Part shown: positions 43,699 to 63,413 of the stretch, one piece after another | Layout of the letters: every line of letters begins with the position of its first letter | Numbering within the stretch: position 1 is the stretch's first letter | Source: a virus | Direction: 5' to 3' (one strand) | Length of the DNA: 64,000 bases | Virus record (IMG/VR): IMGVR_UViG_3300020036_002522 | Notes under the pieces: generated by a model | The model's input: the letters and a program-made list of their open reading frames with translations, nothing else | What the model was told of the DNA's origin: nothing | The model's database searches: none | Translations under genes and position numbers: made by a program

Positions 43699-43716
43699 GT
43701 GCGGATCAATATCGGG

Positions 43717-43845: not shown

Positions 43846-44757
43846 CTACACCTTCTTCCGGGCAGCAAGCATTTTCGCCCGCCATACGGGGTCGGCCCAC
43901 TTCGCCTTGATCGCCGCTGCTTTTGCCGCCTTCACCTCCGGGCGATTGGCCAGCTCCTTGTTGTTTGCGGACTGCATGGCGGCATAGCCGGGGTCGGCCC
44001 ACTGTGCCTTGGATTGGGCGCTTGTCTTGGCTTTGGAAGCGTCAGTATTGCGCGCGGCTTTTATGCCTGCGGCCATTTTGTCGCCCACCGCTACCCACCG
44101 CGCCTTGCTGGCAATGGACTTCTTCTCCAGCACTTCGGGGCGCTGCTGTGCGACGCTCTGTGAAGCGCGCACCTTCGCCACATACTCCGGGTCTTGCCAC
44201 ATCTTTTCGGTAGCGGCCTTCATAGTTTCCCTGAAGGCGTCGGTGTGGATGAACGCGGCCTTGCCGGCTTCGCGGCGCGCGATAACTTCTGGGTCTTTCA
44301 GGGCGAGGCGAATGGCTGCGGTTGTTTTCTCCCTGTATTCTGCGTTATTCCAGCGTACGCCGACGGCCATCGCATTACGCTGCTTTTGGGCATCCGTGCT
44401 CAACGCTGCAGATATTCTGGCAGCCCACTCCGGCGTGCGCACGATGCCGCCAAAGCCTTCGCCGCCGTCGGTAAGGTTGAGCAGCGTGCCGGTCTTTAGG
44501 TCGCGGCGTCCGTACAGCGCTATCAAGCGTATTTCCTCGAAGAACGCCTCGGCCTCGTCCATGCCCTCACGGGTTATTTCGATCACTGGCTCCAACCCCT
44601 CGCGCCGCAGCACCGCCAGCAAATTACCGAAGCCCGGGTTGTGCTTAACCTGTTTCTCCCAATGCATCCATGCGCGGCGGCCTTGGCCTTTGCCCGCATA
44701 GACGACCTGCATGTTCTTTGTGGGGCGAGGGTCTTTGTAAACGTATGTGTAAAACAT
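43846..44757 (-). CDS. GIY-YIG homing endonuclease with NUMOD3-like C-terminal repeats
   Basis: MFYTYVYKDPRP...VVYAGKGQGRRAWMH...EAEAFFEEIRLIALYG...LLNLTDGGEG covers the GIY-YIG, R, E and N elements. C-terminus has repeated (D/R)PE(V/Y/W)...A helices. Confidence 0.85.
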   Translation of the reverse strand: MFYTYVYKDPRPTKNMQVVYAGKGQGRRAWMHWEKQVKHNPGFGNLLAVLRREGLEPVIEITREGMDEAEAFFEEIRLIALYGRRDLKTGTLLNLTDGGEGFGGIVRTPEWAARISAALSTDAQKQRNAMAVGVRWNNAEYREKTTAAIRLALKDPEVIARREAGKAAFIHTDAFRETMKAATEKMWQDPEYVAKVRASQSVAQQRPEVLEKKSIASKARWVAVGDKMAAGIKAARNTDASKAKTSAQSKAQWADPGYAAMQSANNKELANRPEVKAAKAAAIKAKWADPVWRAKMLAARKKV

Positions 44758-51813: not shown

Positions 51814-53352
51814 TCAACCGTAATACGCCTTCTGCCGGGCCCGGAAATCCTCAACATTATCGTCAAAATCATTCGCGAGTCGAATAAATCCGCCGTCCCG
51901 GTACCGCGATATGCACATCTGCAGGCAGTCAACCTCGTCGTCGTTGGCGCCGAACGGGAACTCCGCCACCACGTCGATCAGCGCGTGGGCCCACCGCGTA
52001 TCGGGCGCGTACACCAGCCCGGACGAGAAAATGTCGGATATGGCGTTCACCCGAGCGTACTTGTCGTTGGAAATGCCGTTGCCCTTGCGGCTCGGGCTCA
52101 CTTCCTGCACGACGATGTTCATCCGACGCAGTTCCTGTATCAGCGGAGCGCCGGCAGCCTTCTTTTCAACGATAAGCGAGTCAGGTTCCCATTGTTTCCA
52201 GTGCTCCAGTACCTTGATCTTCAGCTCTGGGAACTCCCAGCGCCCTTTGATGCAGTCCAAAACGATAATTCTGCTCTCGTTGTCCTCGGTTGTCCACACT
52301 CCGACGGTCACGCACGCTGAGTAGTCGGCCCGGGTCTTCGCTTCGTGCGCCGTATCCCACGCCTGGATGATGAACTCTACCTTCGGCGGCTTCTCGTGCG
52401 GCCAAATCTTCCACCATTCGCGTTTTATGAGCGCGCCCTCCTCGGAGGTAGGTTCTTGCATGTACTGCGCGGACCAAAACTGCTGCAACATCGACGCCTT
52501 TTTGGAGAGTAGCTGCTCAACAGGCCACTGTTCTGGCCATAACGACTTACCAGAAGGCAAAATCGCCGGAAAGCGTACTTCCAACCACTGCGGTGAGTCC
52601 GGATTGTCGATCGCCCACTGCAGCGCGCGCCCGATCGGGTCTTTTTTGCCCCAGCGCGTGCCGATCATCACTATTTTACCGTCCGGCATCAGCCGCTGCA
52701 GCGGGCCGATCTGCATGTACTCCCACGCATTGGCGAACTGCACCTCCGGATTGGCCAGCATCGCCTGCTCCGACACCAAGTCATCACAAATCAGCAGGTG
52801 GGCGCCGTGGCCGGCCACGTTGGCCCCGATACCGATGGCCAGATATTTCCCGCCGAGCGTCGTCGCCCAGTTGGATGAAGCGCTCTTGTCCTTGGAGACG
52901 ATGGTGTCGGGGAAAATCTCCTTGTACTTGGCGTCGTCGATCAGGTTGCGCACCTTGCGCCCGAAGTCTGCGGACAGGTCGGCCGTGTGCGTCACCATCA
53001 TGATGTGGTGGGACGGGTTGTGCCCAAGGTACCACGCGACGAACAGAAAGGCGACGGTCTCCGACTTGGAGAAGCGCGGCGGCATGCTCACGGTAACCCG
53101 CGGCTCGGTGCCGTCTTTGGTGCGGTGCAGGATCGGTTTCAGGAACCGGTGATGTGGCCCCTCTTTGAAGTTCGGGTAAACGTAATGGCAGAACGCCATG
53201 AAGTCATCCTTGGCCGCGCGTATCGTGCGCGAATGCTGCCACTTCTCGATGTCGCCCAGCAGCGCCTCCTGCTCCTTACCCTGCATCCCCGGTACGGCCG
53301 CAAGAAGCGCCTCGATGTCCGCTTCGGTAAGGTCGTGCTGCTCGTCCATCAT
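51814..53352 (-). CDS. terL: terminase large subunit
   Basis: P-loop-like VSMPPRFSKSE, Walker B HLLICDDLVSE, and nuclease acidic residues IIQAWDTAHE and FGANDDEVDCL. Size and position are typical. Confidence 0.9.
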   Translation of the reverse strand: MMDEQHDLTEADIEALLAAVPGMQGKEQEALLGDIEKWQHSRTIRAAKDDFMAFCHYVYPNFKEGPHHRFLKPILHRTKDGTEPRVTVSMPPRFSKSETVAFLFVAWYLGHNPSHHIMMVTHTADLSADFGRKVRNLIDDAKYKEIFPDTIVSKDKSASSNWATTLGGKYLAIGIGANVAGHGAHLLICDDLVSEQAMLANPEVQFANAWEYMQIGPLQRLMPDGKIVMIGTRWGKKDPIGRALQWAIDNPDSPQWLEVRFPAILPSGKSLWPEQWPVEQLLSKKASMLQQFWSAQYMQEPTSEEGALIKREWWKIWPHEKPPKVEFIIQAWDTAHEAKTRADYSACVTVGVWTTEDNESRIIVLDCIKGRWEFPELKIKVLEHWKQWEPDSLIVEKKAAGAPLIQELRRMNIVVQEVSPSRKGNGISNDKYARVNAISDIFSSGLVYAPDTRWAHALIDVVAEFPFGANDDEVDCLQMCISRYRDGGFIRLANDFDDNVEDFRARQKAYYG

Positions 53353-54005
53353 GTGTCTTTAGCGTACGTGGGCGCTACGCGCGCCACGATGGCGATCTCT
53401 TTCACCTCGGCGTCCTGCACCTCGATTGTTGGCGGGAGCAAGGACTTGAGTTTAGCGCGTAACCGTTCTTCGATGACACTTGAGTCTTCGTTCTTGTGCG
53501 TGACCTCGGAGCGTTCGGTGAAGGCGGCTACCTCCGTTATCTTGCCGATAAGCTCCAGCGCCTTGAGCCGGTTGCGCGCCACGGGGTCCTTGGTCTCCTC
53601 CAGCAGCTTGGCCACCACGAAGCCGCGAAGCTGTTTGGCCTGCTCCACGAAGTCCCAGTCGTAGGCACTGAGCATCCCCACGAGATGGCGTACGGCCGCC
53701 GGTGTACGGAGGTTCTTGATGTCGGTGAGCTGCTTGTCCGGGGGTGCGCCGGCGGTGAGCGCTGCGAAGGCCTGCTGGGCGAGCGCACTGTCGCGTGGTT
53801 TGGGTGGGGCGCCGGTTACTGGTGCGGTGTCGTCATCCAGCCAGTCGAGCGTTTCCACCTGCGCGTTGAAGATGGCTTCCGCGGGTAGGTCGTCGATGTC
53901 GGTAAACTCTGGCGATAGAAGGTGCTCGAATAACATGCAAAGCCCTTGTAATATACGAAATGTAGCATATAATGGCGGCGTGGGGTTTAGTTGTGTTTTC
54001 CTCAC
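53349..54005 (-). CDS. terminase small subunit candidate
   Basis: First gene of the late block; ATGA overlap with terL. Start is either GTG 54005 (AAGGAG 10 nt upstream) or ATG 53936. No motif recognised. Confidence 0.45.
   Translation of the reverse strand: MRKTQLNPTPPLYATFRILQGLCMLFEHLLSPEFTDIDDLPAEAIFNAQVETLDWLDDDTAPVTGAPPKPRDSALAQQAFAALTAGAPPDKQLTDIKNLRTPAAVRHLVGMLSAYDWDFVEQAKQLRGFVVAKLLEETKDPVARNRLKALELIGKITEVAAFTERSEVTHKNEDSSVIEERLRAKLKSLLPPTIEVQDAEVKEIAIVARVAPTYAKDT
53946..53973 (+). promoter_or_regulatory. sigma70-type promoter (TTGTAA-16-TATAAT) pointing away from the late genes
   Basis: TTGTAA 53946-53951, 16-bp spacer, perfect TATAAT 53968-53973. Confidence 0.5.
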
Positions 54006-54060
54006 AAACGTGATGCTCCTTGAATTAAGCCCCGGCGCGCAATGCTCCGGGGCTTTTTTT
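53980..54060 (+). ncRNA. candidate ~80-nt cis-antisense RNA opposite the 5' end of the late operon
   Basis: Bounded by the promoter at 53946-53973 and the terminator at 54028-54060. No ORF on this strand. Complementary to the AAGGAG/GTG 54005 initiation region of the minus-strand gene. Confidence 0.4.
54028..54060 (+). terminator. intrinsic terminator (+ strand)
   Basis: AGCCCCGG (54028-54035) / CCGGGGCT (54047-54054), 11-nt loop, run of seven T (54054-54060). Confidence 0.6.
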
Positions 54061-54110
54061 CGTCCGTGGTGCTATGTTTTTTATAGCAAAAAAATTTATG
54101 AAATTAATAG

Positions 54111-54139
54111 TTGACAAAATTACTATGGATTGGTAATCG
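54111..54139 (+). promoter_or_regulatory. early-arm promoter candidate (TTGACA-17-TGgTAATCG)
   Basis: Perfect -35 TTGACA 54111-54116, 17-bp spacer ending in TGG, weak -10 TAATCG 54134-54139. Confidence 0.3.
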
Positions 54140-54189
54140 TTCTTCTGACACAGTGTTCTATATCGGCGCCGTCGTGGCACATAGCAAGT

Positions 54190-54225
54190 GGGGGTAGGGG
54201 GGTAGTGGGGTCAACCGAGGGAGGG
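54190..54225 (+). other. G-tract cluster (G5, G6, G4, G3, G3) in the leader of the first early gene
   Basis: gggggtaggggggtagtggggtcaaccgagggaggg read directly. Confidence 0.4.
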
Positions 54226-54302
54226 TTGCCGACCCCCATTCCTACAATTGAGGTATCGAAAGACGCTAGGGTGTTACCAAGCATTCGGTATAGGAGGCCA
54301 TC

Positions 54303-54734
54303 ATGGCTGCTAAGACTCTCTCCCCCACAGTTTCCACAACAACACTGGCTCACGTCAACACGTTGGTGCTTGCCGCACTGTCCTACCAAGACGCTGTGCA
54401 AATCGTGCGCAAGGACTACAACGAAGGCAAGCTCTCGAAAAACAATGCCAAAATCGCATTGGCCACGGCATACGTGCATCACAAGAAGTCCTATGCCGAC
54501 CAACGTGATGCTGAGACTGGCAAGGCATTGCGTAGCACAGCCTTGGAGCAGCAGGTTAACCGCATGCTTCGAGACATCACCGCAGACGATGCAGACAAAA
54601 TGTCTGCAAAGGTTGCAGACAAGATCGTGCTGACTGCCGCACAAGTACGCTTACTCAAGGAGCTGGACGCGACCTTCGACACATACGCATCAATGCGTAA
54701 GGGCATCCTGTCATACATCGCAACTGCACAGTAA
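54303..54734 (+). CDS. first early-arm protein (143 aa, hypothetical)
   Basis: TAGGAGG 5 nt before the ATG. Contains palindrome copy 1 plus two half-sites. Confidence 0.65.
   Translation: MAAKTLSPTVSTTTLAHVNTLVLAALSYQDAVQIVRKDYNEGKLSKNNAKIALATAYVHHKKSYADQRDAETGKALRSTALEQQVNRMLRDITADDADKMSAKVADKIVLTAAQVRLLKELDATFDTYASMRKGILSYIATAQ
54590..54608. promoter_or_regulatory. 19-bp palindrome copy 1 (TGCAGACA-AAA-TGTCTGCA)
   Basis: Read directly; inside ORF 54303-54734, where it encodes ADKMSA. Confidence 0.9.
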
Positions 54735-54956
54735 GCGTATATACGTTTATTCAATCACCGTCGGATTCCTGCTACGGAGTTATCTGAGCGCGGGGATTCG
54801 GCGGGTTCAATACCCCTCGTACAGTAGCGGGCGCAACAGAGTAGGCCGGCACAGTAGCGGGCGTACAGGTTTGTGCGCCGCGCGCCACACCAAAGCGTTC
54901 CCATCCTGTAGCCTTGCGAGTCAGGGCTATGTGGTGCGTCGCATGTCGCGAACACT

Positions 54957-54975
54957 TGCAGACAATATGTCTGCA
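54957..54975. promoter_or_regulatory. 19-bp palindrome copy 2 (centre ATA)
   Basis: Read directly; ends 20 nt before ATG 54996. Confidence 0.9.
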
Positions 54976-54995
54976 CAACACGTTAAGGAACTATC

Positions 54996-55295
54996 ATGTC
55001 AAAAGCAAACTACAACTACACCGTCACCCGCGCTGCTCGTATGGCCCTGGCCCTCAAGCGCGAATGGACTCGTGAGCACTTCCACATGGCAGCGCACGAC
55101 CTCGGACAACTGACCACTCATGCAGACATTTTGTCTGCACCTGTCGTTACGGTGGAAACGCTCCCAGACTTCGGCCCGTGGGCACGTGCATGGGTCAACG
55201 GTACAGTAAGCGTACATCCCACCTACGAGGCGATTCGAGTCATCAAGGTGCCCGGAATCCGCACGCGGCGCCTCGTTGAGCATCAGTTCCGCTAA
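54996..55295 (+). CDS. early hypothetical protein (99 aa)
   Basis: AAGGAA RBS; contains palindrome copy 3. Confidence 0.6.
   Translation: MSKANYNYTVTRAARMALALKREWTREHFHMAAHDLGQLTTHADILSAPVVTVETLPDFGPWARAWVNGTVSVHPTYEAIRVIKVPGIRTRRLVEHQFR
55121..55139. promoter_or_regulatory. 19-bp palindrome copy 3 (centre TTT)
   Basis: Read directly; in-ORF, encodes ADILSA. Confidence 0.9.
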
Positions 55296-55432
55296 TAGAA
55301 GGCATTCAAAAGTACATACGCATAAGGTATTCTTATAGCGTATGTACGCTTTCTCGTGGTTTTCATGATTTTCAATGTGCGTATGCCATTACCTTACGCC
55401 GTGCCGCGTTTGAGCGTTGATTTGTATGGCTT

Positions 55433-55500
55433 TTCTCTTTTACTTCTCTTTATTTATCTATATCTAATTAAATTAAGGTAAGAAGGAGAATAAAAGAGAA
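55433..55500. repeat. imperfect ~68-bp AT-rich inverted repeat
   Basis: TTCTCTTTTACTTCTCTT...AAGAAGGAGAATAAAAGAGAA; the outer 10 bp are perfectly complementary. Confidence 0.55.
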
Positions 55501-55651
55501 TACGTACGCTCGCCCTTCTCGCTCTCGGACTTACGTAAAGTCCTTCCCATAGATCAATGCTTGCTCTTTTTTTCTGCGAGGTAATTTATGTGAAGCTCGG
55601 GAGAGCTAGTATCCATGCGGGTTCCGCGAGGAAGGCCTCGGTTTACGTGCA

Positions 55652-55679
55652 TCGAAATCACGGAAATATCACGTATACT
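55652..55679 (+). promoter_or_regulatory. promoter candidate (TCGAAA-16-TATACT) with palindrome copy 4 at about +7 to +25
   Basis: TATACT 55674-55679; TCGAAA 55652-55657. Confidence 0.3.
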
Positions 55680-55685
55680 GTGTGA

Positions 55686-55704
55686 AGCAGACATTTTGTC
55701 TGCA
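55686..55704. promoter_or_regulatory. 19-bp palindrome copy 4 (AGCAGACA-TTT-TGTCTGCA)
   Basis: Read directly; ends 12 nt before ATG 55717, immediately 5' of AAGGAG. Confidence 0.9.
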
Positions 55705-55716
55705 CTAAGGAGTCCT

Positions 55717-56565
55717 ATGAAAGCATCTAAAACCTTCCGGCTGCTCCGTGAGAATGGACTGTCGGTTACAGAGGCAGAACGCTTGACAAAGCAGATTTGC
55801 AAGCAAAACGACGTACGCATTAAGCTGACCGCTGCGCGCGACTGGTCGCGGCTGCTGGAGCCGCTAAACGCTGACATCAAGAACAAGCAGTCCAACATGG
55901 CGCGTTGGCGTAAGGATGCACAGTGGGCGGAGAAGGGGCCGGTATATGAACCGTACCTGACCGTGCTGTTGCGTACCAAGCAAACCATCCAGCAAGCGTA
56001 CACGCTCAATCTGGACAACCTCACCATACCCGAGATCGCCGCTAAGCGGGGGCTGCCGGGCGACGGGCTGCACTGGAGCAACTGGGTGCCGCGAAGAGTG
56101 CACTCCGCATTCATGGAGGCGTTCGACGTACTGTACGCCAAGATCGAGTGTCGCGGTAAGCGTATCGTCCCGTTCAGTGCGTCGATGGAGCAGAGCGCAT
56201 CCGATGTGCGGTGGGACAAGCTCATCGCTTGGCTTGCCAAGGAGCTGTCTGCGCGTACCACGGTCACCATGGAGCACACCGGACGCTACGACGGTGACGC
56301 CATCCTCATAGACACGCTCAACGAAGCGCTAGACGTTGCCTACACTAGGGGCGTGGACGACGTGGCCCCGGTGAATTGGGTGCACTTGCTGCCGCCTGAA
56401 CGGCAGAAAGAACTGGCCGACTGGCGCGCGGCAACGCTCAACGGACTGCGCGACCCCGACAAACTACACGCAGCGACCGAAGCCCTGCACGACGCTACCG
56501 CTGCCCGCGAGAAAGAGCGCACCGAGAAGCGCCGGGCAGCGGCCGGCCGTGCGCACCACTCATAG
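55717..56565 (+). CDS. early hypothetical protein (282 aa)
   Basis: ORF 55615-56565 trimmed to ATG 55717 after CTAAGGAG. Confidence 0.65.
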   Translation: MKASKTFRLLRENGLSVTEAERLTKQICKQNDVRIKLTAARDWSRLLEPLNADIKNKQSNMARWRKDAQWAEKGPVYEPYLTVLLRTKQTIQQAYTLNLDNLTIPEIAAKRGLPGDGLHWSNWVPRRVHSAFMEAFDVLYAKIECRGKRIVPFSASMEQSASDVRWDKLIAWLAKELSARTTVTMEHTGRYDGDAILIDTLNEALDVAYTRGVDDVAPVNWVHLLPPERQKELADWRAATLNGLRDPDKLHAATEALHDATAAREKERTEKRRAAAGRAHHS

Positions 56566-56581
56566 TCCCGCACCGAACACA

Positions 56582-56600
56582 TGCAGACAAAATGTCTGCA
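56582..56600. promoter_or_regulatory. 19-bp palindrome copy 5 (centre AAA)
   Basis: Read directly; intergenic, 53 nt before ATG 56654. Confidence 0.9.
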
Positions 56601-56653
56601 TACCGAACCCCGCCGCCTGTCGGTTACAGGCAAACAACGTAAGGAGTGCCATC

Positions 56654-57001
56654 ATGGCCAAAACAAACACAACACCGCTTCCCGCAGAAGTCACCGACGC
56701 CTGCATCCGGTTTTTCAAACTGGTGGCGACACACAAGCCCGCCATCCTGAACGTACCCGATGCGGAGCCCTTCCTGCGCCTGATCAACAGCATGGATGTG
56801 CTGGACTTCAAGATACCCCTATTGACGCTCGACACCGCGCACGAGTACATCCGGGCCCGTGAGCAGCAGTTCACCGAGCGCGAGAACAAGCTGCGCGAAC
56901 GTGAGGCCGGCATCGTGCTGTGGCAGAAACAGTTGGACGCGGAGTGCAAAGCGATCTCCAAGCAGGTGCTGTCTCTCCCCAAGCTGCGGATGAAGGAGTA
57001 A
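56654..57001 (+). CDS. early hypothetical protein (115 aa, C-terminal coiled coil)
   Basis: ORF 56549-57001 trimmed to ATG 56654 after TAAGGAG. Confidence 0.6.
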   Translation: MAKTNTTPLPAEVTDACIRFFKLVATHKPAILNVPDAEPFLRLINSMDVLDFKIPLLTLDTAHEYIRAREQQFTERENKLREREAGIVLWQKQLDAECKAISKQVLSLPKLRMKE

Positions 57002-57005
57002 CACA

Positions 57006-57209
57006 ATGATCACACTCACGAAACCACAACGCAAAGCGCTCCACAAGGTGTGGCTGCGCACATGTGCCACGCTGCCAGCCCCAGCGTACCAGTCATACCG
57101 GCCCTATCGCGCTTTCCGACGCACGGTGCAGCACGGGCCCGGATGTGTCATGGTGCAGTTTGCCGGGATGTGGCTGGGCATCGAGCCCGACGGCTACACC
57201 CATAGCTGA
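57006..57209 (+). CDS. early hypothetical protein (67 aa)
   Basis: AAGGAG RBS. Confidence 0.55.
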   Translation: MITLTKPQRKALHKVWLRTCATLPAPAYQSYRPYRAFRRTVQHGPGCVMVQFAGMWLGIEPDGYTHS

Positions 57210-57211
57210 CC

Positions 57212-57526
57212 ATGCAAGGCAACGGCAACGGCGACGGCGGCTACGGCGGCTACGGCGGCTACGGCTACGGCTACGGCAACGGCAACGGCGACGGCTACGG
57301 CAACGGCAACGGCTACGGCAACGGCAACGGCTACGGCAACGGCTACGGCAACGGCTACGGCTACGGCAACGGCGACGGCAGCGGCTACGGCGACGGCGAC
57401 GGCAACGGCGGCTACGGCAACGGCAATCCCCCACGCTGCCTCACCTACGACGCACCCGTAGACCCCTTGCCAGCCCTCTTCTTGATAACGTATTTTTTGA
57501 ATCCGCCACTGGTCGGCCACCAGTAA
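57212..57526 (+). CDS. Gly/Tyr/Asn/Asp-rich low-complexity protein, paralog 1 (104 aa)
   Basis: ATG is 2 nt after the upstream stop. Shares the conserved tail NPPRCLTYDAPVDPLPALF with paralog 2, with synonymous divergence in this frame. Confidence 0.65.
   Translation: MQGNGNGDGGYGGYGGYGYGYGNGNGDGYGNGNGYGNGNGYGNGYGNGYGYGNGDGSGYGDGDGNGGYGNGNPPRCLTYDAPVDPLPALFLITYFLNPPLVGHQ
57218..57426 (+). repeat. GGCNAC hexanucleotide array (about 35 units)
   Basis: ggcaac/ggctac/ggcgac/ggcagc units read directly. The array leaves several frames open on both strands. Confidence 0.85.
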
Positions 57527-57541
57527 CTTAGGAGAACCACA

Positions 57542-57802
57542 ATGTCAAAAGTAATAAACCACAACAAACGCATCGTAGTCCTGCAAGCGGGTTGGGTGTT
57601 CATCGGCAACTACCACGCCGCAACCGATACGAAACCCGCGTACATCACCGACGCATACAACATCCGAAAGTGGGGCACAACCACAGGCCTTGGCGAAATC
57701 GCGCTCAACGGACCCACTAAAGACACCGTGCTGGACCCTTGCGGTATCGTCCTGCTTGATACGCCCGCCAACGTCCTGTTTACCATCCCTTGCGAGCAGT
57801 AG
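57542..57802 (+). CDS. early hypothetical protein (86 aa)
   Basis: AGGAGAACCACA-ATG. Confidence 0.6.
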   Translation: MSKVINHNKRIVVLQAGWVFIGNYHAATDTKPAYITDAYNIRKWGTTTGLGEIALNGPTKDTVLDPCGIVLLDTPANVLFTIPCEQ

Positions 57803-58027
57803 ATGCAAGGCGACGGCAACGGCAACGGCAACGGCTACGGCTACGGCTACGGCTACGGCGACGGCGGCTACGGCGGCTACGGCTACGGCGACGGCGACGG
57901 CAGCGGCTACGGCGACGGCAGCGGCAGCGGCAGCTACGGCAGCGGCAATCCCCCACGCTGCCTCACCTACGACGCGCCGGCGGACCCACTCCCTTCCCTT
58001 TTCGTAATTTCAGGAGCACTGACATGA
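57803..58027 (+). CDS. Gly/Tyr/Asp/Ser-rich low-complexity protein, paralog 2 (74 aa)
   Basis: ATG abuts the upstream TAG. Tail NPPRCLTYDAPADPLPSLF. Confidence 0.65.
   Translation: MQGDGNGNGNGYGYGYGYGDGGYGGYGYGDGDGSGYGDGSGSGSYGSGNPPRCLTYDAPADPLPSLFVISGALT
57809..57948 (+). repeat. GGCNAC hexanucleotide array (about 23 units)
   Basis: Read directly. Confidence 0.85.
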
Positions 58028-58221
58028 GCAAAATTTCACCACTCACGAAGCAAGAACAGTTGGCACTCGACCGGGAACGGCTGGCCATATTCGTGCGAGA
58101 GATCAAGCACTACAAAACGCGCTGGGGCCTGCAGCCCGATCGCATCGCTTTCCGAGACGCTTGGAAGGCAACCCAATTGCAGACATTTTGTCTGCATCAA
58201 CCAGAAGGAGTATCGAAATGA
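58024..58221 (+). CDS. early hypothetical protein (65 aa)
   Basis: ATG 58024 overlaps the stop of paralog 2 (ATGA). Its 3' end contains palindrome copy 6. Confidence 0.55.
   Translation: MSKISPLTKQEQLALDRERLAIFVREIKHYKTRWGLQPDRIAFRDAWKATQLQTFCLHQPEGVSK
58178..58196. promoter_or_regulatory. 19-bp palindrome copy 6 (centre TTT)
   Basis: Read directly; ends 21 nt before ATG 58218, 5' of GAAGGAG. Confidence 0.9.
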
Positions 58222-58586
58222 AAGTCAAAGTATCAACCGCGTCCGGCCCCGTGCTGGACAGGATGGTGGCGAAGCTCGTTGGGAAGTCCTATGTTAAGGG
58301 CGATACCGACTATGCGCCTGACGGCCGCATTTATCAGCGCGGCACTGCACAACCAACCGGGCCACACTACTCCACTGACTGGGCACAAGGCGGGCCGATC
58401 ATTGAGCGGGAGGGCATCTGTTTTGCCTCTATTCGAAAGGGCAGAAAGATAGCCGGGTGGCGGGCGGCATATAGAAAGGACGGCGTATTCGGATTCGACA
58501 GTTCTACCACACTGATCGCAGCGTGCAGATGCTTCGTGACATCGAAATTGGGTGATGAAGTCGAGGTGCCTGATGAACTCGCCTAA
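58218..58586 (+). CDS. DUF2591 (NinX)-like protein (122 aa)
   Basis: MKVKVSTASGPVLDRMVAKLVG...HYSTDWAQGGPIIEREGI resembles the LD-x-x-VA ... YS-x-DW-x-x-GGP-I-IE pattern of that family as remembered. Confidence 0.55.
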   Translation: MKVKVSTASGPVLDRMVAKLVGKSYVKGDTDYAPDGRIYQRGTAQPTGPHYSTDWAQGGPIIEREGICFASIRKGRKIAGWRAAYRKDGVFGFDSSTTLIAACRCFVTSKLGDEVEVPDELA

Positions 58587-58884
58587 CCCCACGCAGCCAC
58601 GCACCGCTCATATCGCCAACAACGCGACGCTATTTGTCAACCGCAAGGGCCAGATCACACTGGACCCACGCATCGTGTACCGGGAAGGGGCGCCGGTGAT
58701 CGAGGTACGCACGCGCTACACCCACGGGGTGGCATCGCAGGGGCCCTTCTACTACATCACGACTACCTACCCGTTGACGGTCATACCCACCACACCCAAG
58801 GATCGCAAGGAGTTGCTACGCAACATGGCCACGCTCCACGCTATGACCTTGGGACACCCACACAAACTAAGGGGAAAGCTATGA
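58573..58884 (+). CDS. early hypothetical protein (103 aa)
   Basis: ORF 58552-58884 trimmed to ATG 58573 after GAGGTG. Confidence 0.5.
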   Translation: MNSPNPTQPRTAHIANNATLFVNRKGQITLDPRIVYREGAPVIEVRTRYTHGVASQGPFYYITTTYPLTVIPTTPKDRKELLRNMATLHAMTLGHPHKLRGKL

Positions 58885-59546
58885 CAACCGACGTCGAAGA
58901 AAAGACCGTGTTCAAGTTCACCGAACTAAGCCAACGCGCAAAAGAGAGCGCCATCGGCCGCTACGCCATGCCTGGCTACGACTGGTGGGACGCCACCATC
59001 GACGACTACAAGTCCGACCCGGACGTCAAAGCCAAGGGCTACGACATCGACGAGATTTATTTCTCGGGCTTCAGCTCGCAGGGTGACGGGGCTTGCTGGA
59101 AGGGGCGTGTATTCCTGAAGCCGTGGATCACCACGCATATGGTGGCGCCCGAGGATGCTGTGAAGCGCGAGATACTGCTGGCGCTGATCGAGGAGGGTTG
59201 GATTTCATCGTCTGCCAAGATCACCACGGCGGGGCGGTACAGCCATAGCTACACGATGTCTATAGACGACATCCCGCAGTACACCGAGGACAACGACGGT
59301 GACGGGCTGCTGGCCATAGAGGGGCTGTTCAAAGATGCGCGTGTCGGAGACCTGTTCGACGCCATCGGCGGGCAGGCCGCGATCGACGCACTGGAGGCAG
59401 ACATTTTGTCTGCATGCCGGGAGCTGGCCGACACGATATACAAAGACCTTGAGGACGAGTACGACGGGTACTTTGAAGAGGATGCGTTTGCCGATACCGC
59501 CGCGGTGAACGAATGGGAGTTCGACGAGAACGGCGTTTTAATCTAG
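58881..59546 (+). CDS. acidic early protein (221 aa)
   Basis: ATGA junction. Asp/Glu-rich; ...DWWDATIDDY...IYFSGFSSQGDGACWKG... Contains palindrome copy 7. Confidence 0.65.
   Translation: MTTDVEEKTVFKFTELSQRAKESAIGRYAMPGYDWWDATIDDYKSDPDVKAKGYDIDEIYFSGFSSQGDGACWKGRVFLKPWITTHMVAPEDAVKREILLALIEEGWISSSAKITTAGRYSHSYTMSIDDIPQYTEDNDGDGLLAIEGLFKDARVGDLFDAIGGQAAIDALEADILSACRELADTIYKDLEDEYDGYFEEDAFADTAAVNEWEFDENGVLI
59396..59414. promoter_or_regulatory. 19-bp palindrome copy 7 (GGCAGACA-TTT-TGTCTGCA)
   Basis: Read directly; in-ORF, encodes ADILSA. Confidence 0.9.
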
Positions 59547-59555
59547 GAGAAAAGT

Positions 59556-59747
59556 ATGGACGCTTTTGAAAACGAAGATGACGTGCGCTGCGCTAGGTGC
59601 GGTGCAATACCAGAAGAAATCGTTTGGGACTGCGATTTCGATTATGACGGCAACGACCGTGTGCACGAGTACGGCAAGTACGACTGCCAGTGTGGGCACA
59701 GCGAGAAGTTCCAGACCAACGATCCTTATGCTGGGGACGAAGACTAA
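59556..59747 (+). CDS. small acidic zinc-ribbon protein (63 aa)
   Basis: CARCG...CQCGH; AGGAGA RBS. Confidence 0.55.
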   Translation: MDAFENEDDVRCARCGAIPEEIVWDCDFDYDGNDRVHEYGKYDCQCGHSEKFQTNDPYAGDED

Positions 59748-59764
59748 CTTAAAAGGAGCAACAC

Positions 59765-59992
59765 ATGAATGAAGACCTAAACCCCCTGCAACTGTTGGTT
59801 GCGCAGCACTACGCCAACGGCATATACGCCAGCGTGAAGGACACCAACGACGTGGCGCACGTTGACGAACCCCTGTTCACGCGCTTGATCGCGTCTGCTG
59901 CCGAGTGCAGCGGGCCCTACGATCTGACCGGACAGTTGTACCGCGCCCGCGATGCCATCAGTGCGCTGGCCACCATCTTTGAAACCCTTTAA
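59765..59992 (+). CDS. early hypothetical protein (75 aa)
   Basis: AAAGGAGCAACAC-ATG. Confidence 0.55.
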   Translation: MNEDLNPLQLLVAQHYANGIYASVKDTNDVAHVDEPLFTRLIASAAECSGPYDLTGQLYRARDAISALATIFETL

Positions 59993-60004
59993 GGAGAAAA
60001 CACA

Positions 60005-60898
60005 ATGTTATCAAACACACGCAACCTGCAACGCGCAAACTCATACGAAGACTGCCTTGATCTTTTCGCCAAGATCAGCAAGCCCCGAGGAAGCGGCTGG
60101 AGCGAGAACGAGCGTCCACTGGGCAGCAAGTACCAGCGCCACTACCGCGTCGAGCGCCGCTACAACGGGGACTGGTTCGACGTCATCCTGTACCACACCA
60201 CAATGGCACGCTTCTACAAGCCCGAGGCGGACGGCAGCTACCGGGTGCAGTATTCGTGGGACAGCCGGACAACCAGCAGCCAATTCATGCACCACGTGGT
60301 GCATGTCAATCAGGTGGAGATGTACCGTACCAAAGACGGAGAACGCAAGGTGCCAATCGGCCCGGGTGAACTGAGCACCGACCTGTGGATAACGCCCCTT
60401 GGCACGCTGGATATGGCCCGGAGTCACCACTCACAAGTGTACGTACCCAAGGTAAGCGAGGAGTTCAAGGCGTGGCGCAAGGCGTTTCGAGAGAACCTGT
60501 CCAATATCTGTTTCCTGTTGGAGCAGACGGTGCCGGAGGTGATCGCTACCCACACCCCGGATGCAAATGACGGGCACCCGTTCAGAAGTAGCAAGACAAG
60601 CACGTGGGAGCTGCGCTATTGGGACGGGGAGACGCTGCAGGAGAGCGTTATCGAGCACTTGCGCACCATGTATGCACAGGCAACGCGCAGCCTCATGGAC
60701 AAGCGGGAGTACAAGGCCACGCCCCGCAGGTATTCATGGAGGCAGAAGGAACTGGCGGATTATGTCGATCCTACTCCACAAGAGGTTACACGTAGCGTGC
60801 TGGCCCTGCTGGAGGCGGGTACGTGGGCTCCGAAGCGCCACGACGCAGTACCGCTGCCGATGTTTCCCACGGAGCTGCCAAAGAACTGGACACTCTGA
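60005..60898 (+). CDS. hypothetical protein (297 aa)
   Basis: AAGGAGAAAACACA-ATG. Confidence 0.65.
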   Translation: MLSNTRNLQRANSYEDCLDLFAKISKPRGSGWSENERPLGSKYQRHYRVERRYNGDWFDVILYHTTMARFYKPEADGSYRVQYSWDSRTTSSQFMHHVVHVNQVEMYRTKDGERKVPIGPGELSTDLWITPLGTLDMARSHHSQVYVPKVSEEFKAWRKAFRENLSNICFLLEQTVPEVIATHTPDANDGHPFRSSKTSTWELRYWDGETLQESVIEHLRTMYAQATRSLMDKREYKATPRRYSWRQKELADYVDPTPQEVTRSVLALLEAGTWAPKRHDAVPLPMFPTELPKNWTL

Positions 60899-60924
60899 TT
60901 TTAGGGTGTACACTAACACGACGG

Positions 60925-60943
60925 TGCAGACATAATGTCTGCA
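60925..60943. promoter_or_regulatory. 19-bp palindrome copy 8 (centre TAA)
   Basis: Read directly; intergenic, 62 nt before ATG 61006. Confidence 0.9.
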
Positions 60944-61005
60944 CCTGAAAGCCAAGGGTCAGCCGCCCCTATAACAGCGGTCAAACACAACTTAGAGTAA
61001 ACATT

Positions 61006-62142
61006 ATGACTACTATTGACATCCTGTCCCACAAGCAAATCTCCAACCTGATCAAGGCTACGGGCCACGAGCAGACCATCCTGATCGAAGGCGAGGCCGG
61101 CGTGGGCAAGACCGCTATTGCACACGAGTTCGCAACTGACCCGTTCTTCGCCAACCATCTGATCGTCAAGCCCATCGACTGCACCCAGTTGAGCGACGGT
61201 TCTGTGTGGATGCCGGACATCGACCGTGATGCAGGCGTGTCCCGAGAGTTGCCAAACGAGCGGTTCGGAGTGCATAACGCCAACCAGCGCAGCGTGCACG
61301 GTAGCGTGCCGATTGTGGTGTGCTTGGACGAGATCGCCAAGGCGCGGCAGTTCATTAAAGACGTCTTGGCACCCATCGTCTACGAGCAGCGTATCGGCCA
61401 GTACCACATGCCAGAGGGGTCGGTGGTGTTCGGCTGTACCAACCTGAGCGAAGAGGGTTTGGGCGACGCTATGCAGGCACACTTGCGTAACCGTATCACC
61501 ATCGTGCGCATGCGCAAGCCAACGCAGAAGGAGTGGGTCAACGACTTCGCCATCCCCAAGAAGCTGAGCCCTGAGTTGATCGCTGCCACGGAGATGTTCC
61601 CCCAAATCTTCGATTCCTTCCTCGACTACGAGCCGGGCGGCAAGTTCGAGGGCAAGTCCATCGGCAAGCACAACGCATGGATCGCCAACCCCAAGGACGC
61701 AGGCCAAGGGCAGGTGGTGACGCCGCGCTCGCTGCACAGCGCATCGAAGATCATCAACAACAGCAAGCGTGCCGGTACCGTAGATGATCAGACGCTGCAA
61801 GCCGCGCTCAATGGTACCGTGGGGCCAGCGTTCGGTAGCGAGCTGACATCGTTTATCCGCTTCGGGCGTGACATCCCGTCGTTCGAGCGCGTTGTCAAGG
61901 ACCCCGCTGGTTGCCCGATGCCGGAGTCCCCCGTTGCGCAAATTGTCCAGACGTTCCAGCTCATCACCCAGACCAGCAACTACGAGCAGGCCGAAGCCGT
62001 GACCGAGTACGTGGCGCGTCGCAAGGGCGAGATGCAGTCCCTGTTCATCAGCAGCATCGCCAACAGCAGCGCCATCAGCATGTTCGCGACGTCGAAAATC
62101 TTCGGAAAATTATTGGGCGAGAACCGCAAGTTCTTTAACTAA
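61006..62142 (+). CDS. MoxR/CobS-like AAA+ (AAA_5-type) ATPase
   Basis: Walker A ILIEGEAGVGKT, Walker B VVCLDEIAKA, sensor-1 FGCTNL, Arg-rich NRITIVRMRKP. Confidence 0.8.
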   Translation: MTTIDILSHKQISNLIKATGHEQTILIEGEAGVGKTAIAHEFATDPFFANHLIVKPIDCTQLSDGSVWMPDIDRDAGVSRELPNERFGVHNANQRSVHGSVPIVVCLDEIAKARQFIKDVLAPIVYEQRIGQYHMPEGSVVFGCTNLSEEGLGDAMQAHLRNRITIVRMRKPTQKEWVNDFAIPKKLSPELIAATEMFPQIFDSFLDYEPGGKFEGKSIGKHNAWIANPKDAGQGQVVTPRSLHSASKIINNSKRAGTVDDQTLQAALNGTVGPAFGSELTSFIRFGRDIPSFERVVKDPAGCPMPESPVAQIVQTFQLITQTSNYEQAEAVTEYVARRKGEMQSLFISSIANSSAISMFATSKIFGKLLGENRKFFN

Positions 62143-62153
62143 GGAGAAAACAC

Positions 62154-63413
62154 ATGGCTTGGAAAGATTTGACCCCGCGCGAGCGGATCACTGCTGCGTC
62201 GTTCGACATCATGCGCGACGACGAGTTCTGCCTTATGGGTGGGGCTACACAAATCGGCAAGGTGGAGATGGTGGGTGACGACGTGATGCCTACTGCCGGC
62301 ACCGATGGCCGCGACGTGTTCTACAACACGGACTTCGTTACGGGCTTGACGCGCAAGATGGTGCGCATGTTAGTTGCGCATGAAACACTACACAAGATGC
62401 TCATGCATTGCGTGGAGTACACGTCCATTGTCGAGAAACACCCTGACGCGTCCAACATGGCGATGGATCACGTGGTCAACCTGATGATCGAGGACTTGGA
62501 CGCCGGGCGCGGGTTCATCGAATGGATTGTGGAGCCACCACCACTCATGGATGCCAAGTACCGTGGCATGTCGTTCCTCGAAGTTCTGCAGGACCTGTTG
62601 AAGAACCCCCCACCGCAGCAGCCGCAGAACGGTAGGCCGCAGGCCGGTGCAGGTAAACCCGGACAGCCCGGCGGTACCTTGGATCAGCACATCCCGGGCA
62701 AGAAGCAGGGTATGCCGGGTGCAGACAAAATGTCTGCAGAGGAGGTCGACAAACTCAAGCAGGATATGCAGGACGCCAATGCCCAAGGCCAGATCGTGCG
62801 CGAGAAGATGCTGGCCAAGAAGCGCGGTGCAGCCGGTAGCGGCGGGCGTGTCGGTGGGTTCCAAGAGCGGCGCACGGATTGGAAAGGACCGTTGCGCCGG
62901 TTCATACAGGACTTGGCCGAGGGTGACGAGATGTCCCGATTCAGCCCGCCCAACAAGCGCTTGCAACCGCTTGGGATTCTCCTGCCATCACACTACAGTG
63001 AGGCAGTGGGCGAGATCATCATAGCCTGCGACACATCAGGCTCCATGACCGGGGTGTACCCCACGGTGTTCGGTGAGGTGGCGCGCATCTGCCAGCAAGT
63101 CAAGCCGGCCAAGGTGCGGATGATCTGGTGGGATACCAAGATCGCGGGCGAGCAGACGTTCACTGCGCGCGACTACGACAAGATCGCCAAGCAGCTGAAA
63201 CCTGCCGGGGGTGGGGGCACCACGGTGTCGTGTGTAGCGGAGCACATCAAGGCCAAGAAGATCAAGGCCCGGTGCATCATCATGCTGACCGACGGGTATA
63301 TCGAGCACCAGTACAGCATGGCGCCCATCCCGCATCTATGGGGTATCGTCGACAACACCGGCTTCAAGCCGCTCAAGGGCAAGAAGATCGACATCCAGTC
63401 GGTGGGGCTATGA
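62154..63413 (+). CDS. VWA-domain protein with N-terminal HExxH putative metallopeptidase domain (DUF2201-like)
   Basis: LVAHETLHKMLMH; MIDAS IIACDTSGSM with downstream IIMLTDG. Gly/Pro/Gln-rich linker carries palindrome copy 9. Confidence 0.75.
   Translation: MAWKDLTPRERITAASFDIMRDDEFCLMGGATQIGKVEMVGDDVMPTAGTDGRDVFYNTDFVTGLTRKMVRMLVAHETLHKMLMHCVEYTSIVEKHPDASNMAMDHVVNLMIEDLDAGRGFIEWIVEPPPLMDAKYRGMSFLEVLQDLLKNPPPQQPQNGRPQAGAGKPGQPGGTLDQHIPGKKQGMPGADKMSAEEVDKLKQDMQDANAQGQIVREKMLAKKRGAAGSGGRVGGFQERRTDWKGPLRRFIQDLAEGDEMSRFSPPNKRLQPLGILLPSHYSEAVGEIIIACDTSGSMTGVYPTVFGEVARICQQVKPAKVRMIWWDTKIAGEQTFTARDYDKIAKQLKPAGGGGTTVSCVAEHIKAKKIKARCIIMLTDGYIEHQYSMAPIPHLWGIVDNTGFKPLKGKKIDIQSVGL
62720..62738. promoter_or_regulatory. 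19-bp palindrome copy 9 (centre AAA)
   Basis: Read directly; in-ORF, encodes ADKMSA. Confidence 0.9.

Follow-up and report, generated by a model that had tools for sequence, protein, structure and literature searches.

In the Streptomyces phage phiC31, a 17-bp inverted repeat (the CIR) occurs in many highly conserved copies that are bound by the phage repressor and lie mostly in intergenic regions before early genes, with some inside ORFs. Dispersed perfect palindromes are also found as the KorB operators (OB) of plasmid RK2, the parS sites of ParB and the SopB sites of phage N15, which are bound by dimers and from which silencing at a distance is possible. The stoperators of Cluster A mycobacteriophages (L5, TipsytheTRex) are short protein-binding sites present in many copies within transcribed DNA, mostly where genes are separated by short gaps; they affect the host polymerase during elongation and not at a promoter, and site sequence and phage regulator co-evolve (PMC9283540, PMC6550527). 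The hairpin promoters of N4 and LUZ7 combine a short stem with a 3-nt loop and lie before early genes in the arm that enters the cell first (PMC4496689, PMC9163698). Finally, the PeSLs of T4-type phages are repeated intergenic stem-loop elements, set in the gap between stop codon and Shine-Dalgarno sequence at spots where small ORFans are gained or lost (PMC2839356, PMC4122927).

The palindrome described here has something in common with each of these systems and is identical to none. Like the phiC31 CIRs, it is present in many copies, mostly before early genes and partly in ORFs; phiC31, however, is a temperate phage with a known repressor gene, and its CIRs stand beside a conserved early-promoter motif, none of which was found here. 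Stoperators are asymmetric, 13-14 bp long, read by a monomer, oriented with transcription and spread genome-wide in temperate phages with an identified immunity repressor, whereas the present sites are perfectly symmetric and restricted to one arm of a phage with no known repressor. Hairpin promoters share the genome layout of this phage but need a virion RNA polymerase and have one strand on which bases of the loop, the stem and the start site are conserved; here the polymerase is undetected, the loop unconstrained and the sequence downstream of the stem unconserved. PeSLs measure about 100 bp and include a consensus sigma-70 promoter and a stem-loop experimentally shown to terminate transcription, in contrast to the 19 bp that alone are conserved in this phage, where the promoter part and the T-run are absent. 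Sites of the KorB, parS and SopB type depend on a protein of the ParB family and on life as a plasmid or prophage, and neither was found.

Results

Nine copies of a palindrome in one arm

The window (the whole stretch of DNA analysed, 64,000 nucleotides) covers most of a 67.9-kb metagenomic phage that is uncultivated. Its layout is N4-like: small early genes are followed by homologues of N4 gp24 and gp25 and then by replication genes, while the late genes lie on the opposite strand, with a giant virion protein at their end. By appearance this is a virulent podovirus, and signs of lysogeny were not found. The gene layout suggests the labels "early arm" and "control region" for two parts of it:

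53938-54302, unstranded: divergent non-coding region between leftward late and rightward early genes; no palindrome copies
54303-63413, + strand: palindrome-bearing arm of co-directional small ORFs of unknown function, ending with an ATPase/vWA pair

The divergent region holds an A/T tract, a consensus -35 element (TTGACA, 54111-54116) and a terminator-like hairpin (54029-54060).

An exact pattern scan with GCAGACAWWWTGTCTGC gave nine matches in the window (starts 54591, 54958, 55122, 55687, 56583, 58179, 59397, 60926 and 62721, that is, the coordinates listed below less the outer base), which bears out the nine copies reported in the earlier note. The element is a 19-bp palindrome, GCAGACA-WWW-TGTCTGC, with arms identical in 9/9 copies, and all copies lie in the one arm that adjoins the divergent control region. 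No match appeared in 100 dinucleotide-preserving shuffles. That positions 1-54500 contain half-sites only was likewise correct: a relaxed scan (free centre, up to two mismatches) added a single match in the window, at 29625, unrelated and due to chance, and lone arms occur elsewhere at background frequency (GCAGACA, n = 5; TGTCTGC, n = 11 in 54 kb; that at 1480 among these). The 3.9 kb of source contig beyond the window, covered by locus L271, contains no further copy. The sites are as follows:

54590-54608, unstranded: copy 1, TGCAGACA-AAA-TGTCTGCA; inside ORF g1 (54303-54734), in frame as A-D-K-M-S-A
54614-54621, unstranded: isolated tenth arm TGCAGACA, 5 nt past copy 1, which together with the 3' arm of that copy makes a weaker second inverted repeat
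54957-54975, unstranded: copy 2, centre ATA; in an intergenic gap, 20 nt before the g2 start at 54996
55121-55139, unstranded: copy 3, centre TTT; within g2 (54996-55295), where it is translated as A-D-I-L-S-A
55686-55704, unstranded: copy 4, with 7-bp arms, outer base A and centre TTT; 12 nt separate it from the g3 start at 55717
56582-56600, unstranded: copy 5, centre AAA, 9-bp arms; intergenic, 15 nt past the g3 stop and 53 nt short of the g4 start at 56654
58178-58196, unstranded: copy 6, centre TTT; 21 nt before the start of g10 (NinX-like) at 58218, in the 3' end of a 65-aa ORF (58024-58221)
59396-59414, unstranded: copy 7, with 7-bp arms, outer base G and centre TTT; within g12 (58881-59546), whose frame reads it as A-D-I-L-S-A
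60925-60943, unstranded: copy 8, centre TAA, 10-bp arms GGTGCAGACA; intergenic, 24 nt past the g15 stop and 62 nt before 61006, where the gene for an N4 gp24-like ATPase starts
62720-62738, unstranded: copy 9, centre AAA; inside the N4 gp25-like vWA gene (62154-63413), in a low-complexity linker, in frame as A-D-K-M-S-A

Centres and outer bases, the latter deviating in copies 4 and 7, agree with those previously listed. A promoter-like sequence, TCGAAA-16-TATACT, ends 7 nt upstream of copy 4. The four copies deep within genes all use one reading frame (GCA GAC AWW WTG TCT GCA, giving A-D-K/I-M/L-S-A), and the JGI gene calls on the source contig, made independently, match the ORFs. Five copies had been placed before start codons and four in gene bodies. 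The five start distances stand, but five copies overlap called genes, because copy 6 also sits in the 3' end of the 65-aa ORF.

A lineage-specific palindrome in every relative

The earlier note had suggested scanning related phages for the motif and its position. About 20 related contigs each carry a short palindrome of their own, in 3-10 copies, in the corresponding arm, and the elements obey a positional rule, lying mostly 0-10 nt past a stop codon and 16-30 nt ahead of the next start. The palindrome is a family-wide, lineage-specific feature; this is the main new result and had not been foreseen. An inner GACA-N-TGTC is common to the palindromes of many relatives, and the GCAGACA arms are kept in clade L001/L006 at only ~65% DNA identity, with different centres and flanks. 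The arm sequence is otherwise particular to each lineage. Some genomes have two classes, which are never mixed inside one site: L063 contains five CCGGGACA and three CTGTGACA sites, all unmixed (p ~ 0.006).

Centre length is 0, 2, 3 or 4 bp across the family. It is constant within each of 17 genomes (~110 sites), while the centre sequence is free and AAA<->TTT flips are seen at orthologous centres. In the L114/L115 clade, which has homologous CGGGACA elements, centre length varies in 3/19 sites.

In the window, centre positions are A/T in 27/27 cases, against an arm G+C of 51-62%. The statement that the centre is always A/T holds for these nine copies but not for the near-identical relative L112, which has CTT/AAG at one site. 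The earlier note had also proposed that the centre forms a -10-like promoter hexamer, CATAAT or CAAAAT. CATAAT is present in copy 8, where one promoter-scan match uses it; however, no -35 element lies at a suitable distance, the strand of the hexamer is random, and relatives of the same design have centres CGA, GAG, CCG, TGG and ACC. Because equivalent sites in relatives have such G/C-containing centres, the -10 reading was rejected, its probability being practically nil.

Conservation is confined to the arms

Beyond the first base outside the arms, pairwise flank identity among the nine copies is at background (0.2-0.3), as expected from the earlier description of the flanks as not conserved. 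Since the flanks are at background and the centre is variable, conservation is aimed at the arm bases and is no by-product of recent copying.

This bears on the view that the palindromes are readerless cassette boundaries, PeSL-like, at which recombination shuffles early cassettes among co-infecting relatives, short identical sequences being both kept alike by recombination and promoting it. Early-arm gene content differs greatly between relatives and the palindromes persist despite this turnover; a cassette bearing its own palindrome, located between copies 1 and 2, distinguishes the near-identical L008, L111 and L112 from the window; the phage encodes an exonuclease and a Hjc-like resolvase; and cassette exchange at such repeats has a precedent in T4-type phages (PMC2839356, PMC4122927). 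On the other hand, homology blocks end near palindromes only slightly more often than by chance (8/86 within 25 nt, 4.9% expected, p = 0.06), there is no promoter part, and 16 fixed bases are short for homologous exchange. Gene conversion would moreover homogenise the centre and adjacent flanks, both of which are unconserved. Shuffling of cassettes is improbable as the reason for the repeat.

Duplex or hairpin

A perfect palindrome alone reads equally well as a duplex site or as a hairpin. Pairing beyond the core at offsets 1-4 was, observed/expected, 90/89.6, 50/52.1, 49/50.1 and 47/46.3, where the expectation is for two independent arms each matching one symmetric consensus. These values are what independent arms predict, so that no covariation backs a stem. 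Arm mismatches show no strand bias (by my reading of the alignments, roughly 5-6 sense G.T against 7-8 A.C events), and compensatory arm changes were found neither among the nine copies nor between the window and L001 clades. Arm identity, a free centre of fixed length and unconserved flanks best fit a symmetric, sequence-specific reader of DNA.

The serious rival is a set of intercistronic RNA stem-loops (8-bp stem, 3-nt loop) in a polycistronic early transcript, serving as attenuators or pause sites, as barriers to 3' exonucleases or as 5' message stabilisers for each gene, whether or not a phage protein that binds or cuts RNA takes part. It is serious because the elements of the L114/L115 clade resemble intrinsic terminators: they are directly followed by T-runs (4.2-4.6 T in 10 nt, background 2.3) and have 3- and 4-nt loops within one genome. 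All copies belong to the arm whose genes are transcribed co-directionally, stable RNA hairpins are predicted for them (-10.8 to -17.4 kcal/mol, z-scores down to -6), the stop-to-start placement of the family elements suits them, and the L116 copies contain one sense-strand G.T pair. Repeated terminator hairpins between early ORFans, the PeSLs, are a tested precedent (PMC2839356). The window copies, however, lack the T-run (1.6 T in 10 nt), 4-5 of them lie within coding sequence, and G.U mismatches are not in excess over A.C. A purely structural hairpin would not need identical arms, and yet compensatory changes are absent, so the RNA reading, already raised in the earlier note, leaves the exact arm identity unexplained. 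It would be unusual for a perfect A-form stem to be read sequence-specifically when its loop is arbitrary, and a stem of this size is too short for RNase III. An RNA role is on balance unlikely.

The same hairpin could instead extrude from DNA as an early promoter of the N4 type, or act as another single-strand signal, with an unrecognised protein that enters together with the DNA as its reader, for instance part of the 3281-aa virion protein. The layout matches that of Schitoviridae, g16 and g17 (the gp24 and gp25 homologues) lie as far from the arm start as in N4, and the giant virion protein that ends the leftward late genes occupies the position of the N4 virion polymerase (vRNAP). The geometry, a 7-10-bp stem with a 3-nt loop, is compatible, and the A/T-rich centre may ease extrusion. 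In LUZ7, an N4-like phage, nine early starts have been mapped, most with a hairpin promoter, the start lying 13-14 bp from the hairpin centre (PMC9163698); this spacing applied here yields leaders of 12-26 nt that bear the Shine-Dalgarno sequence.

Nevertheless, no RNA polymerase gene was detected in this phage, nor were RNAPII genes. The giant protein has no polymerase match in PHROG, Pfam or PDB and lacks motifs of the DxDGD or T7 type; an Ala/Glu-rich coiled coil makes up its first 2200 aa, and its C-terminal 1100 aa show no polymerase fold in what is a poor model (pLDDT 57). A 1210-aa virion protein is of Q/N/A low complexity. N4 recognition depends on specific template-strand loop and stem bases (-11 purine, -10G, -8G, +1C; PMC4496689), whereas the template-strand loops here are TTT, TAT, AAA and TTA and flip from one orthologue to another, and conservation is absent at every base downstream of the stem, start site included. 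A many-copy identical palindrome is also absent from the N4-like RiverRider and Pokken. The earlier idea of hairpin promoters was right about the layout, but it fails because no polymerase is detectable and loop and start-site base are unconserved; its probability is low.

Discussion

I tentatively favour the view that the palindrome is the duplex recognition site of a homodimeric, sequence-specific protein, most probably phage-encoded, that acts arm-wide. One monomer would sit on each arm and read 7-8 bp, (T)GCAGACA, the arm centres being 11 bp, or one helical turn, apart. The 3-bp centre would be uncontacted and yet fixed at 3 bp, and its A/T composition in the window lineage hints at indirect readout, for example through a narrowed groove or a bend. 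The repeat itself, its restriction to the arm, its lineage-specific occurrence across the family, its placement and its conservation pattern are shown; duplex reading, a dimer as reader, the phage origin of that reader and a road-block are inferred. Centre lengths of 0, 2, 3 and 4 bp across the family are not easily tolerated by one protein family of fixed geometry. I also counted against an operator the absence of a site at the presumed main promoter and the variable centre length and T-runs of L114/L115.

The earlier note had put forward an operator for a dimeric phage regulator, and the pattern of arms, centre and flanks, with neither covariation nor strand bias, favours it; a cognate protein was not found. 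Early-arm proteins gave no match to any DNA-binding family, g15, the sole family-wide early-arm protein, has a confident structure model of no known fold, and no early-arm protein is common to the phages that share a palindrome. One candidate reader is speculative, being specific to the window lineage and not conserved in relatives:

1895-2221, + strand: 108-aa ORF with a weak MarR-type winged-helix match (E = 0.03)

The specific analogies with KorB, ParB and SopB fell away, because neither such a protein nor any other cognate one was found and the putative main promoter has no site. A system of that type for centromere function or silencing, with clamps loading at dispersed palindromes, would explain perfect palindromes of similar size; but the scanned proteins gave no family match to ParB-like, Walker/ParA partition, integrase or protelomerase proteins, the sites are limited to one arm and the genome is virulent-podovirus-like. 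Partition is very improbable.

For a dimeric reader of the duplex, the most likely action is a polymerase block, since no site covers the presumed main promoter and the sites lie inside the transcribed arm, typically at stop/RBS junctions. The reader would block or modulate host RNA polymerase as it transcribes through the arm, and early-gene expression would be shut off or graded at each gene junction, possibly with cooperating sites. Because family members each have their own palindrome in the corresponding arm, the element is most likely the docking site of a putative phage regulator, and lineage-specific arms, in two classes that stay unmixed within sites, are the pattern expected if operators and regulators co-evolve.

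A palindrome repeated nine times in the early arm

The repeated palindrome is genuine, departs strongly from chance and is found throughout the family. The pattern GCAGACAWWWTGTCTGC matches nine times in the window, at 54591, 54958, 55122, 55687, 56583, 58179, 59397, 60926 and 62721, and not once in 100 dinucleotide-preserving shuffles, which bears out the nine perfect copies of GCAGACA-WWW-TGTCTGC reported in an earlier note. Their confinement to the early-gene arm, claimed there as well, also held: when the centre was left free and up to two mismatches were allowed, the sole extra match, at 29625, was unrelated and due to chance, and the 3.9 kb of the 67,941-bp source contig lying outside the window contain no further copy. 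Single arms elsewhere in the window are at background frequency, and an extra lone arm is present at 54614-54621. The independent JGI gene calls on the 67,941-bp contig agree with the ORFs called here.

Numbered from left to right, the copies have arms of 7-10 bp around a centre of 3 nt, which reads AAA, TTT, ATA or TAA. The arms are of 8 bases in seven copies, through an outer T/A, and reach 9 bp in copy 5 and 10 bp in copy 8, while those of copies 4 and 7 are of 7 bp. Four copies are clearly intergenic, one lies at the 3' end of a small ORF, within its final 25 nt, and the four that lie deep in genes share one frame (GCA GAC AWW WTG TCT GCA). Five copies end 12-62 nt 5' of start codons, in agreement with the distances first noted. 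The flanks of the nine copies are not conserved past the first base; conservation therefore targets the arms, and recent copying does not account for it.

Genome setting

The minus-strand genes between 54.0 and 14.7 kb are late ones and include those for terminase (51814-53352), portal, major head protein, tail proteins, a 1210-aa Q/N-rich protein and a 3281-aa protein. Plus-strand genes run from 54303 past the window end into 1-14.5 kb, and encode small ORFs, an AAA ATPase and a vWA protein, a family A DNA polymerase, an exonuclease, a helicase and a DUF927 primase-helicase. Since the ATPase/vWA pair (g16/g17, 61006-63413, plus strand) is homologous to N4 gp24/gp25 and lies at a distance from the arm start comparable to that in N4-like phages, the gene layout is N4-like, and from this layout the early-arm end would be the one that enters the host first. 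No nucleotide relative was found among 50,697 phage records; by terminase, the pelagiphages HTVC027P/023P come nearest among cultured phages (44% amino-acid identity).

Several other features were recorded along the window. The tRNA scan gave two tRNAs, tRNA-Tyr and tRNA-Pro, within the late region, where the adjoining ORF, beside the major head protein gene, is a weak homing-endonuclease match:

43610-43794 and 43846-44757, minus strand: tRNA/homing-endonuclease-like stretch (tRNA scan; weak match)

In the divergent region (53946-54060, plus strand), a terminator-like hairpin, GCCCCGG...CCGGGGC and seven T, comes about 55 nt after a promoter-like TTGTAA-16-TATAAT (10/12 matches), and the two may produce a short RNA. 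A G-rich structured leader (54181-54240) lies upstream of g1, the first ORF of the arm. In the 420-bp A/T-rich non-coding gap between g2 and g3 (55296-55716) there are several small hairpins, and a promoter-like TCGAAA-16-TATACT ends 7 nt 5' of copy 4; the gap could harbour an origin, a small RNA or a cluster of promoters. Two small ORFs (57212-57526 and 57803-58027, plus strand) consist almost wholly of Gly/Tyr/Asn/Asp repeats (GYGNGN...) and have a common C-terminal tail, NPPRCLTYDAP.DPLP.LF; a similar repeat ORF is found at about 2125-2350 of a distant relative, L085. The ORF at 2565-2909 (plus strand) matches the N-terminal domain of dATP/dGTP diphosphohydrolase (MazZ-like, E = 6e-21), a likeness that hints at nucleotide-pool manipulation or base modification. 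That at 3037-3324 (plus strand) encodes a small Hjc/VRR-NUC-like nuclease kept in 20 relatives; cruciforms, if stably extruded, would be cut by an enzyme that resolves junctions.

Each lineage has its own palindrome

The earlier note had proposed that relatives be scanned for the motif and its position. About 100 related loci (L-numbers below) were collected by a motif scan of viral contigs and by terminase- and ATPase-based locus retrieval. The near-identical fragments L008, L111 and L112 retain the copies, plus one more within an inserted cassette. The clade of L001 and L006 (about 65% DNA identity) has the same GCAGACA arms, extended to AACTSGCAGACA, around the centres TCT, TTT, AGA and TGG. 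In the remaining clades, the same arm carries a recurrent palindrome peculiar to each, as listed below, and the inner GACA...TGTC is common to many of them.

Recurrent palindromes of the remaining clades (related viral loci; N, centre)
L113, L102: TGTGGACA-N3
L063, two together: CCGGGACA-N3 and CTGTGACA-N3
L070/L083: TAGGGACA-N3
L105: TTGAGGACA-N3
L101: TGGGGTGC-N3
L118: TAACTCCCGA-N3
L114/L115: CGGGACA-N1-2 (CGGGACA-N1-2-TGTCCCG)
L107: GGGGACA-N2
L089/L109: GGGAACA-N2
L081: CTCAGGTGCA-N2
L056/L057/L119: TTAGGCAATTGCCTAA
L095/L104: GGAGAGAATTCTCTCC
L116: CTCGGGTAG-N4-CTACCTGAG

In loci that also span late or replication genes, copies are present in the early arm only. Since each clade has its own version, and in the early arm only, the palindrome is a family trait whose sequence is lineage-specific: the scan found it family-wide in the same arm, with a sequence that differs by lineage. 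Over about 140 sites, the element most often begins 0-10 nt after the preceding stop, and its distance to the next start has a sharp peak at 16-30 nt; the gene caller behind these distances is crude, but the modes are clear.

Duplex site or hairpin

Centre length is fixed within 17 of 19 genomes, the exception being L114/L115, in which 3 of 19 sites are 1 nt shorter. The sequence of the centre, by contrast, is under no constraint in the family and flips between orthologues, with AAA against TTT in L006 and L001 and ATA against AAA at copy 2. A first impression of compensatory pairing beyond the core did not survive a formal test, in which pairs equalled the expectation for independent arms matching a symmetric consensus; the arms are invariant within a genome and therefore uninformative on compensatory change. 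In imperfect copies, sense-strand G.T mismatches show no clear preference over A.C mismatches. Together with the unconserved flanks, these results are those that a symmetric site on duplex DNA gives.

The T-runs and loop lengths of L114/L115, on the other hand, are those that an RNA terminator gives. The 10 nt after the stem hold 4.2-4.6 T in L114/L115, and 1.6 in the window copies against a background of 2.2; T-runs 3' of the element are found in L114/L115 and partly in L001, L072 and L109, and are absent in the window. A G+C-rich hairpin with a T-run directly behind it, the signature of an intrinsic terminator, is thus present in L114/L115 and lacking at the window copies. In L114 (7428-10700) and L115 (12557-17920; early-sense coordinates, the reverse complement of the stored loci), palindrome, T-run and Shine-Dalgarno of the next gene follow one another. 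Because the T-run comes directly after the palindrome, nearly every early gene in these two loci is preceded by an apparent intrinsic terminator. The predicted RNA hairpins are stable (-10.8 to -17.4 kcal/mol), which is compatible with either reading, and the Rfam scan found no RNA families at palindrome sites.

The proposal that the elements act as RNA stem-loops, made in the earlier note, therefore draws on their position and on the terminator-like form and loop-length variation of L114/L115. It is nevertheless rather unlikely, since the window has no T-run and a purely structural hairpin leaves unexplained the identity of the arms across nine copies and a 35%-diverged clade.

Another possibility is that the palindromes mark the boundaries of exchangeable cassettes, in the manner of PeSLs. 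There is one clear example, a cassette that carries its own palindrome. Mosaic junctions seemed at first to fall exactly at palindromes; the block-end statistics are weak: homology-block ends lie within 25 nt of a repeat in 8/86 cases against 4.9% expected (p = 0.06). Moreover, the definition of a PeSL includes a sigma-70 early promoter (PMC2839356), and this defining part is absent; a sigma-70 promoter scan rose barely above shuffles (9 matches against 4.5), and nothing beyond the 19 bp is conserved. I consider a role of this kind quite improbable.

Three further candidates were rejected. The analogy with dispersed ParB parS, RK2 KorB or N15 SopB sites, suggested earlier, falls because neither the scans nor the JGI Pfam table gave a ParB-family or partition protein, and the suggestion of a -10-like core is contradicted by the centres of the relatives. 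REP elements of a host were the third. REP/RAYT systems are characterized by an imperfect palindrome with a GTAG head, many copies in the host and a RAYT gene. The flanks do not match, and 185,579 bacterial genomes gave scattered single hits at chance level, unrelated REP-like repeats in a few MAGs, and no clue to the host. In those MAG loci (L151, L162, L194, L153, L201, L163 and L164), GCAGACA-N3-TGTCTGC stands within longer repeats of their own with GTAGC...GCTAC flanks; by sequence, these repeats resemble REP elements, and they are unrelated to the phage copies.

The N4-type promoter reading and the missing polymerase

The N4-like genome plan gives some appeal to the earlier proposal that the palindromes are extruded hairpin promoters for a virion polymerase, all the more as an inverted repeat with a 3-nt loop does lie upstream of early genes. 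N4 promoter recognition, however, depends on strand-specific loop, stem and start bases (-11 purine, -10G, -8G, +1C; PMC4496689). Here the loop is not conserved and its centres flip between orthologues, the start base is not conserved either, and nothing beyond the arms is kept. The N4-like phages checked, RiverRider and Pokken, have no many-copy identical palindrome.

The polymerase itself is also missing. No vRNAP, RNAPII subunit or other RNA polymerase was detected by PHROGs, Pfam, PDB sequence search and motif scans of the giant and other large virion ORFs, and tblastn for a virion polymerase was negative. The site held in N4 by the virion RNA polymerase is occupied by the following gene:

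14714-24559, minus strand: giant virion-type protein of 3281 aa

In this protein, some 2200 aa of Ala/Glu/Lys-rich coiled coil precede a conserved metallopeptidase-like block, HEVAGH, and an LPD38 domain. Polymerase motifs, PHROG matches and PDB matches are lacking, and only six homologues were found among 5.8 billion proteins. AlphaFold and Foldseek revealed no polymerase fold in its C-terminal 1101 aa, for which the model is poor (pLDDT 57). The layout thus fits and the polymerase and the conserved loop and start bases do not, which makes N4-type hairpin early promoters very unlikely. With its N4-like architecture and no detectable phage RNA polymerase, the family could be a lineage of N4 plan whose transcription depends on the polymerase of the host. 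Fainter still than that of N4-type promoters is the chance that the lineage-specific palindromes are early promoters or entry signals, as hairpins or as duplex, for an activity of no recognisable kind delivered together with the DNA, such as the 3281-aa protein if ejected, by which the first 8 kb of the genome would be transcribed or drawn in. Were they such signals, they would represent a second, non-homologous solution to polymerase-independent early expression.

A proposed operator and its putative reader

The reading ranked first, tentatively and at somewhat less than even chances, is that the palindrome is an operator, a symmetric site bound by a dimer on duplex DNA. The identity of 14-16 arm bases, kept through nine copies and the 35%-diverged clade against drifting centres and flanks, calls for a reader of specific bases. 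Known hairpin readers touch loop bases (N4, PMC4496689; LUZ7, PMC9163698), and a dimer on duplex DNA fits better than these because the centre is ignored in sequence and kept in length. Identical two-fold half-sites at a fixed spacing around a free spacer, as an operator has, are what is found (constant centre in 17/19 genomes). Operators also lie at or adjoining promoters, and here the control region (53938-54302) has no site and, of the nine copies, only 4 and 8 have promoter-like hexamers just upstream. Because the divergent control region holds no site, the regulator would be likely to act on polymerase already transcribing the arm.

The scans with Pfam, PHROGs and NCBIfam of all early and middle small ORFs revealed no DNA-binding family among early-arm proteins. 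Two ORFs were considered further:

1895-2221, plus strand: MarR-like candidate ORF of 108 aa, with a winged-helix signature and a weak match to HcaR (3k0l), E = 0.03
60005-60898, plus strand: g15, the sole early-arm protein conserved family-wide, always just upstream of the ATPase

The MarR-like ORF is lineage-specific, being present in near-identical contigs only, and its sequence makes it a candidate reader, only as a lead. The AlphaFold model of g15 is confident (pLDDT 86); its fold has no match in the PDB, and its matches in BFVD are uncharacterised phage proteins only. Comparison of phages with a common palindrome gave no early-arm protein common to them. Of the dimeric phage regulator proposed in the earlier note, then, the arm, centre and flank pattern speaks in favour and the cognate protein was not found. 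The missing reader and the terminator-like clade of L114/L115 are the weak points of the operator reading, and the mechanism may be that of a DNA operator or that of an RNA hairpin.

Discussion

Dispersed, lineage-specific recognition palindromes in a phage early arm are of a kind with known analogues; no description was found of this form, this setting or this phage family. The closest analogue is provided by the stoperators of Cluster A mycobacteriophages (PMC9283540, PMC6550527), which are asymmetric, oriented, distributed genome-wide and read by a monomeric immunity repressor (PMC9283540). The palindromes described here are, in contrast, symmetric and confined to one arm, and they belong to a virulent-looking phage in which the protein family scans found no repressor or integrase and any sign of lysogeny is absent.

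The succession of stop, palindrome, ribosome-binding site and start, together with the survey of palindromes, provides a marker with which the early arm can be found and oriented in metagenomic contigs of this group. The terminator-like form taken by the element in L114/L115 suggests that DNA site and RNA hairpin are interconvertible in evolution. If the palindromes are operator-like, a virulent-looking family would control its whole hypervariable early arm via one short site placed at nearly every gene junction. Their divergence between lineages would then offer a natural system for the co-evolution of a regulator and its many sites and, after identification of the reader, a ready-made collection of orthogonal site/regulator pairs.
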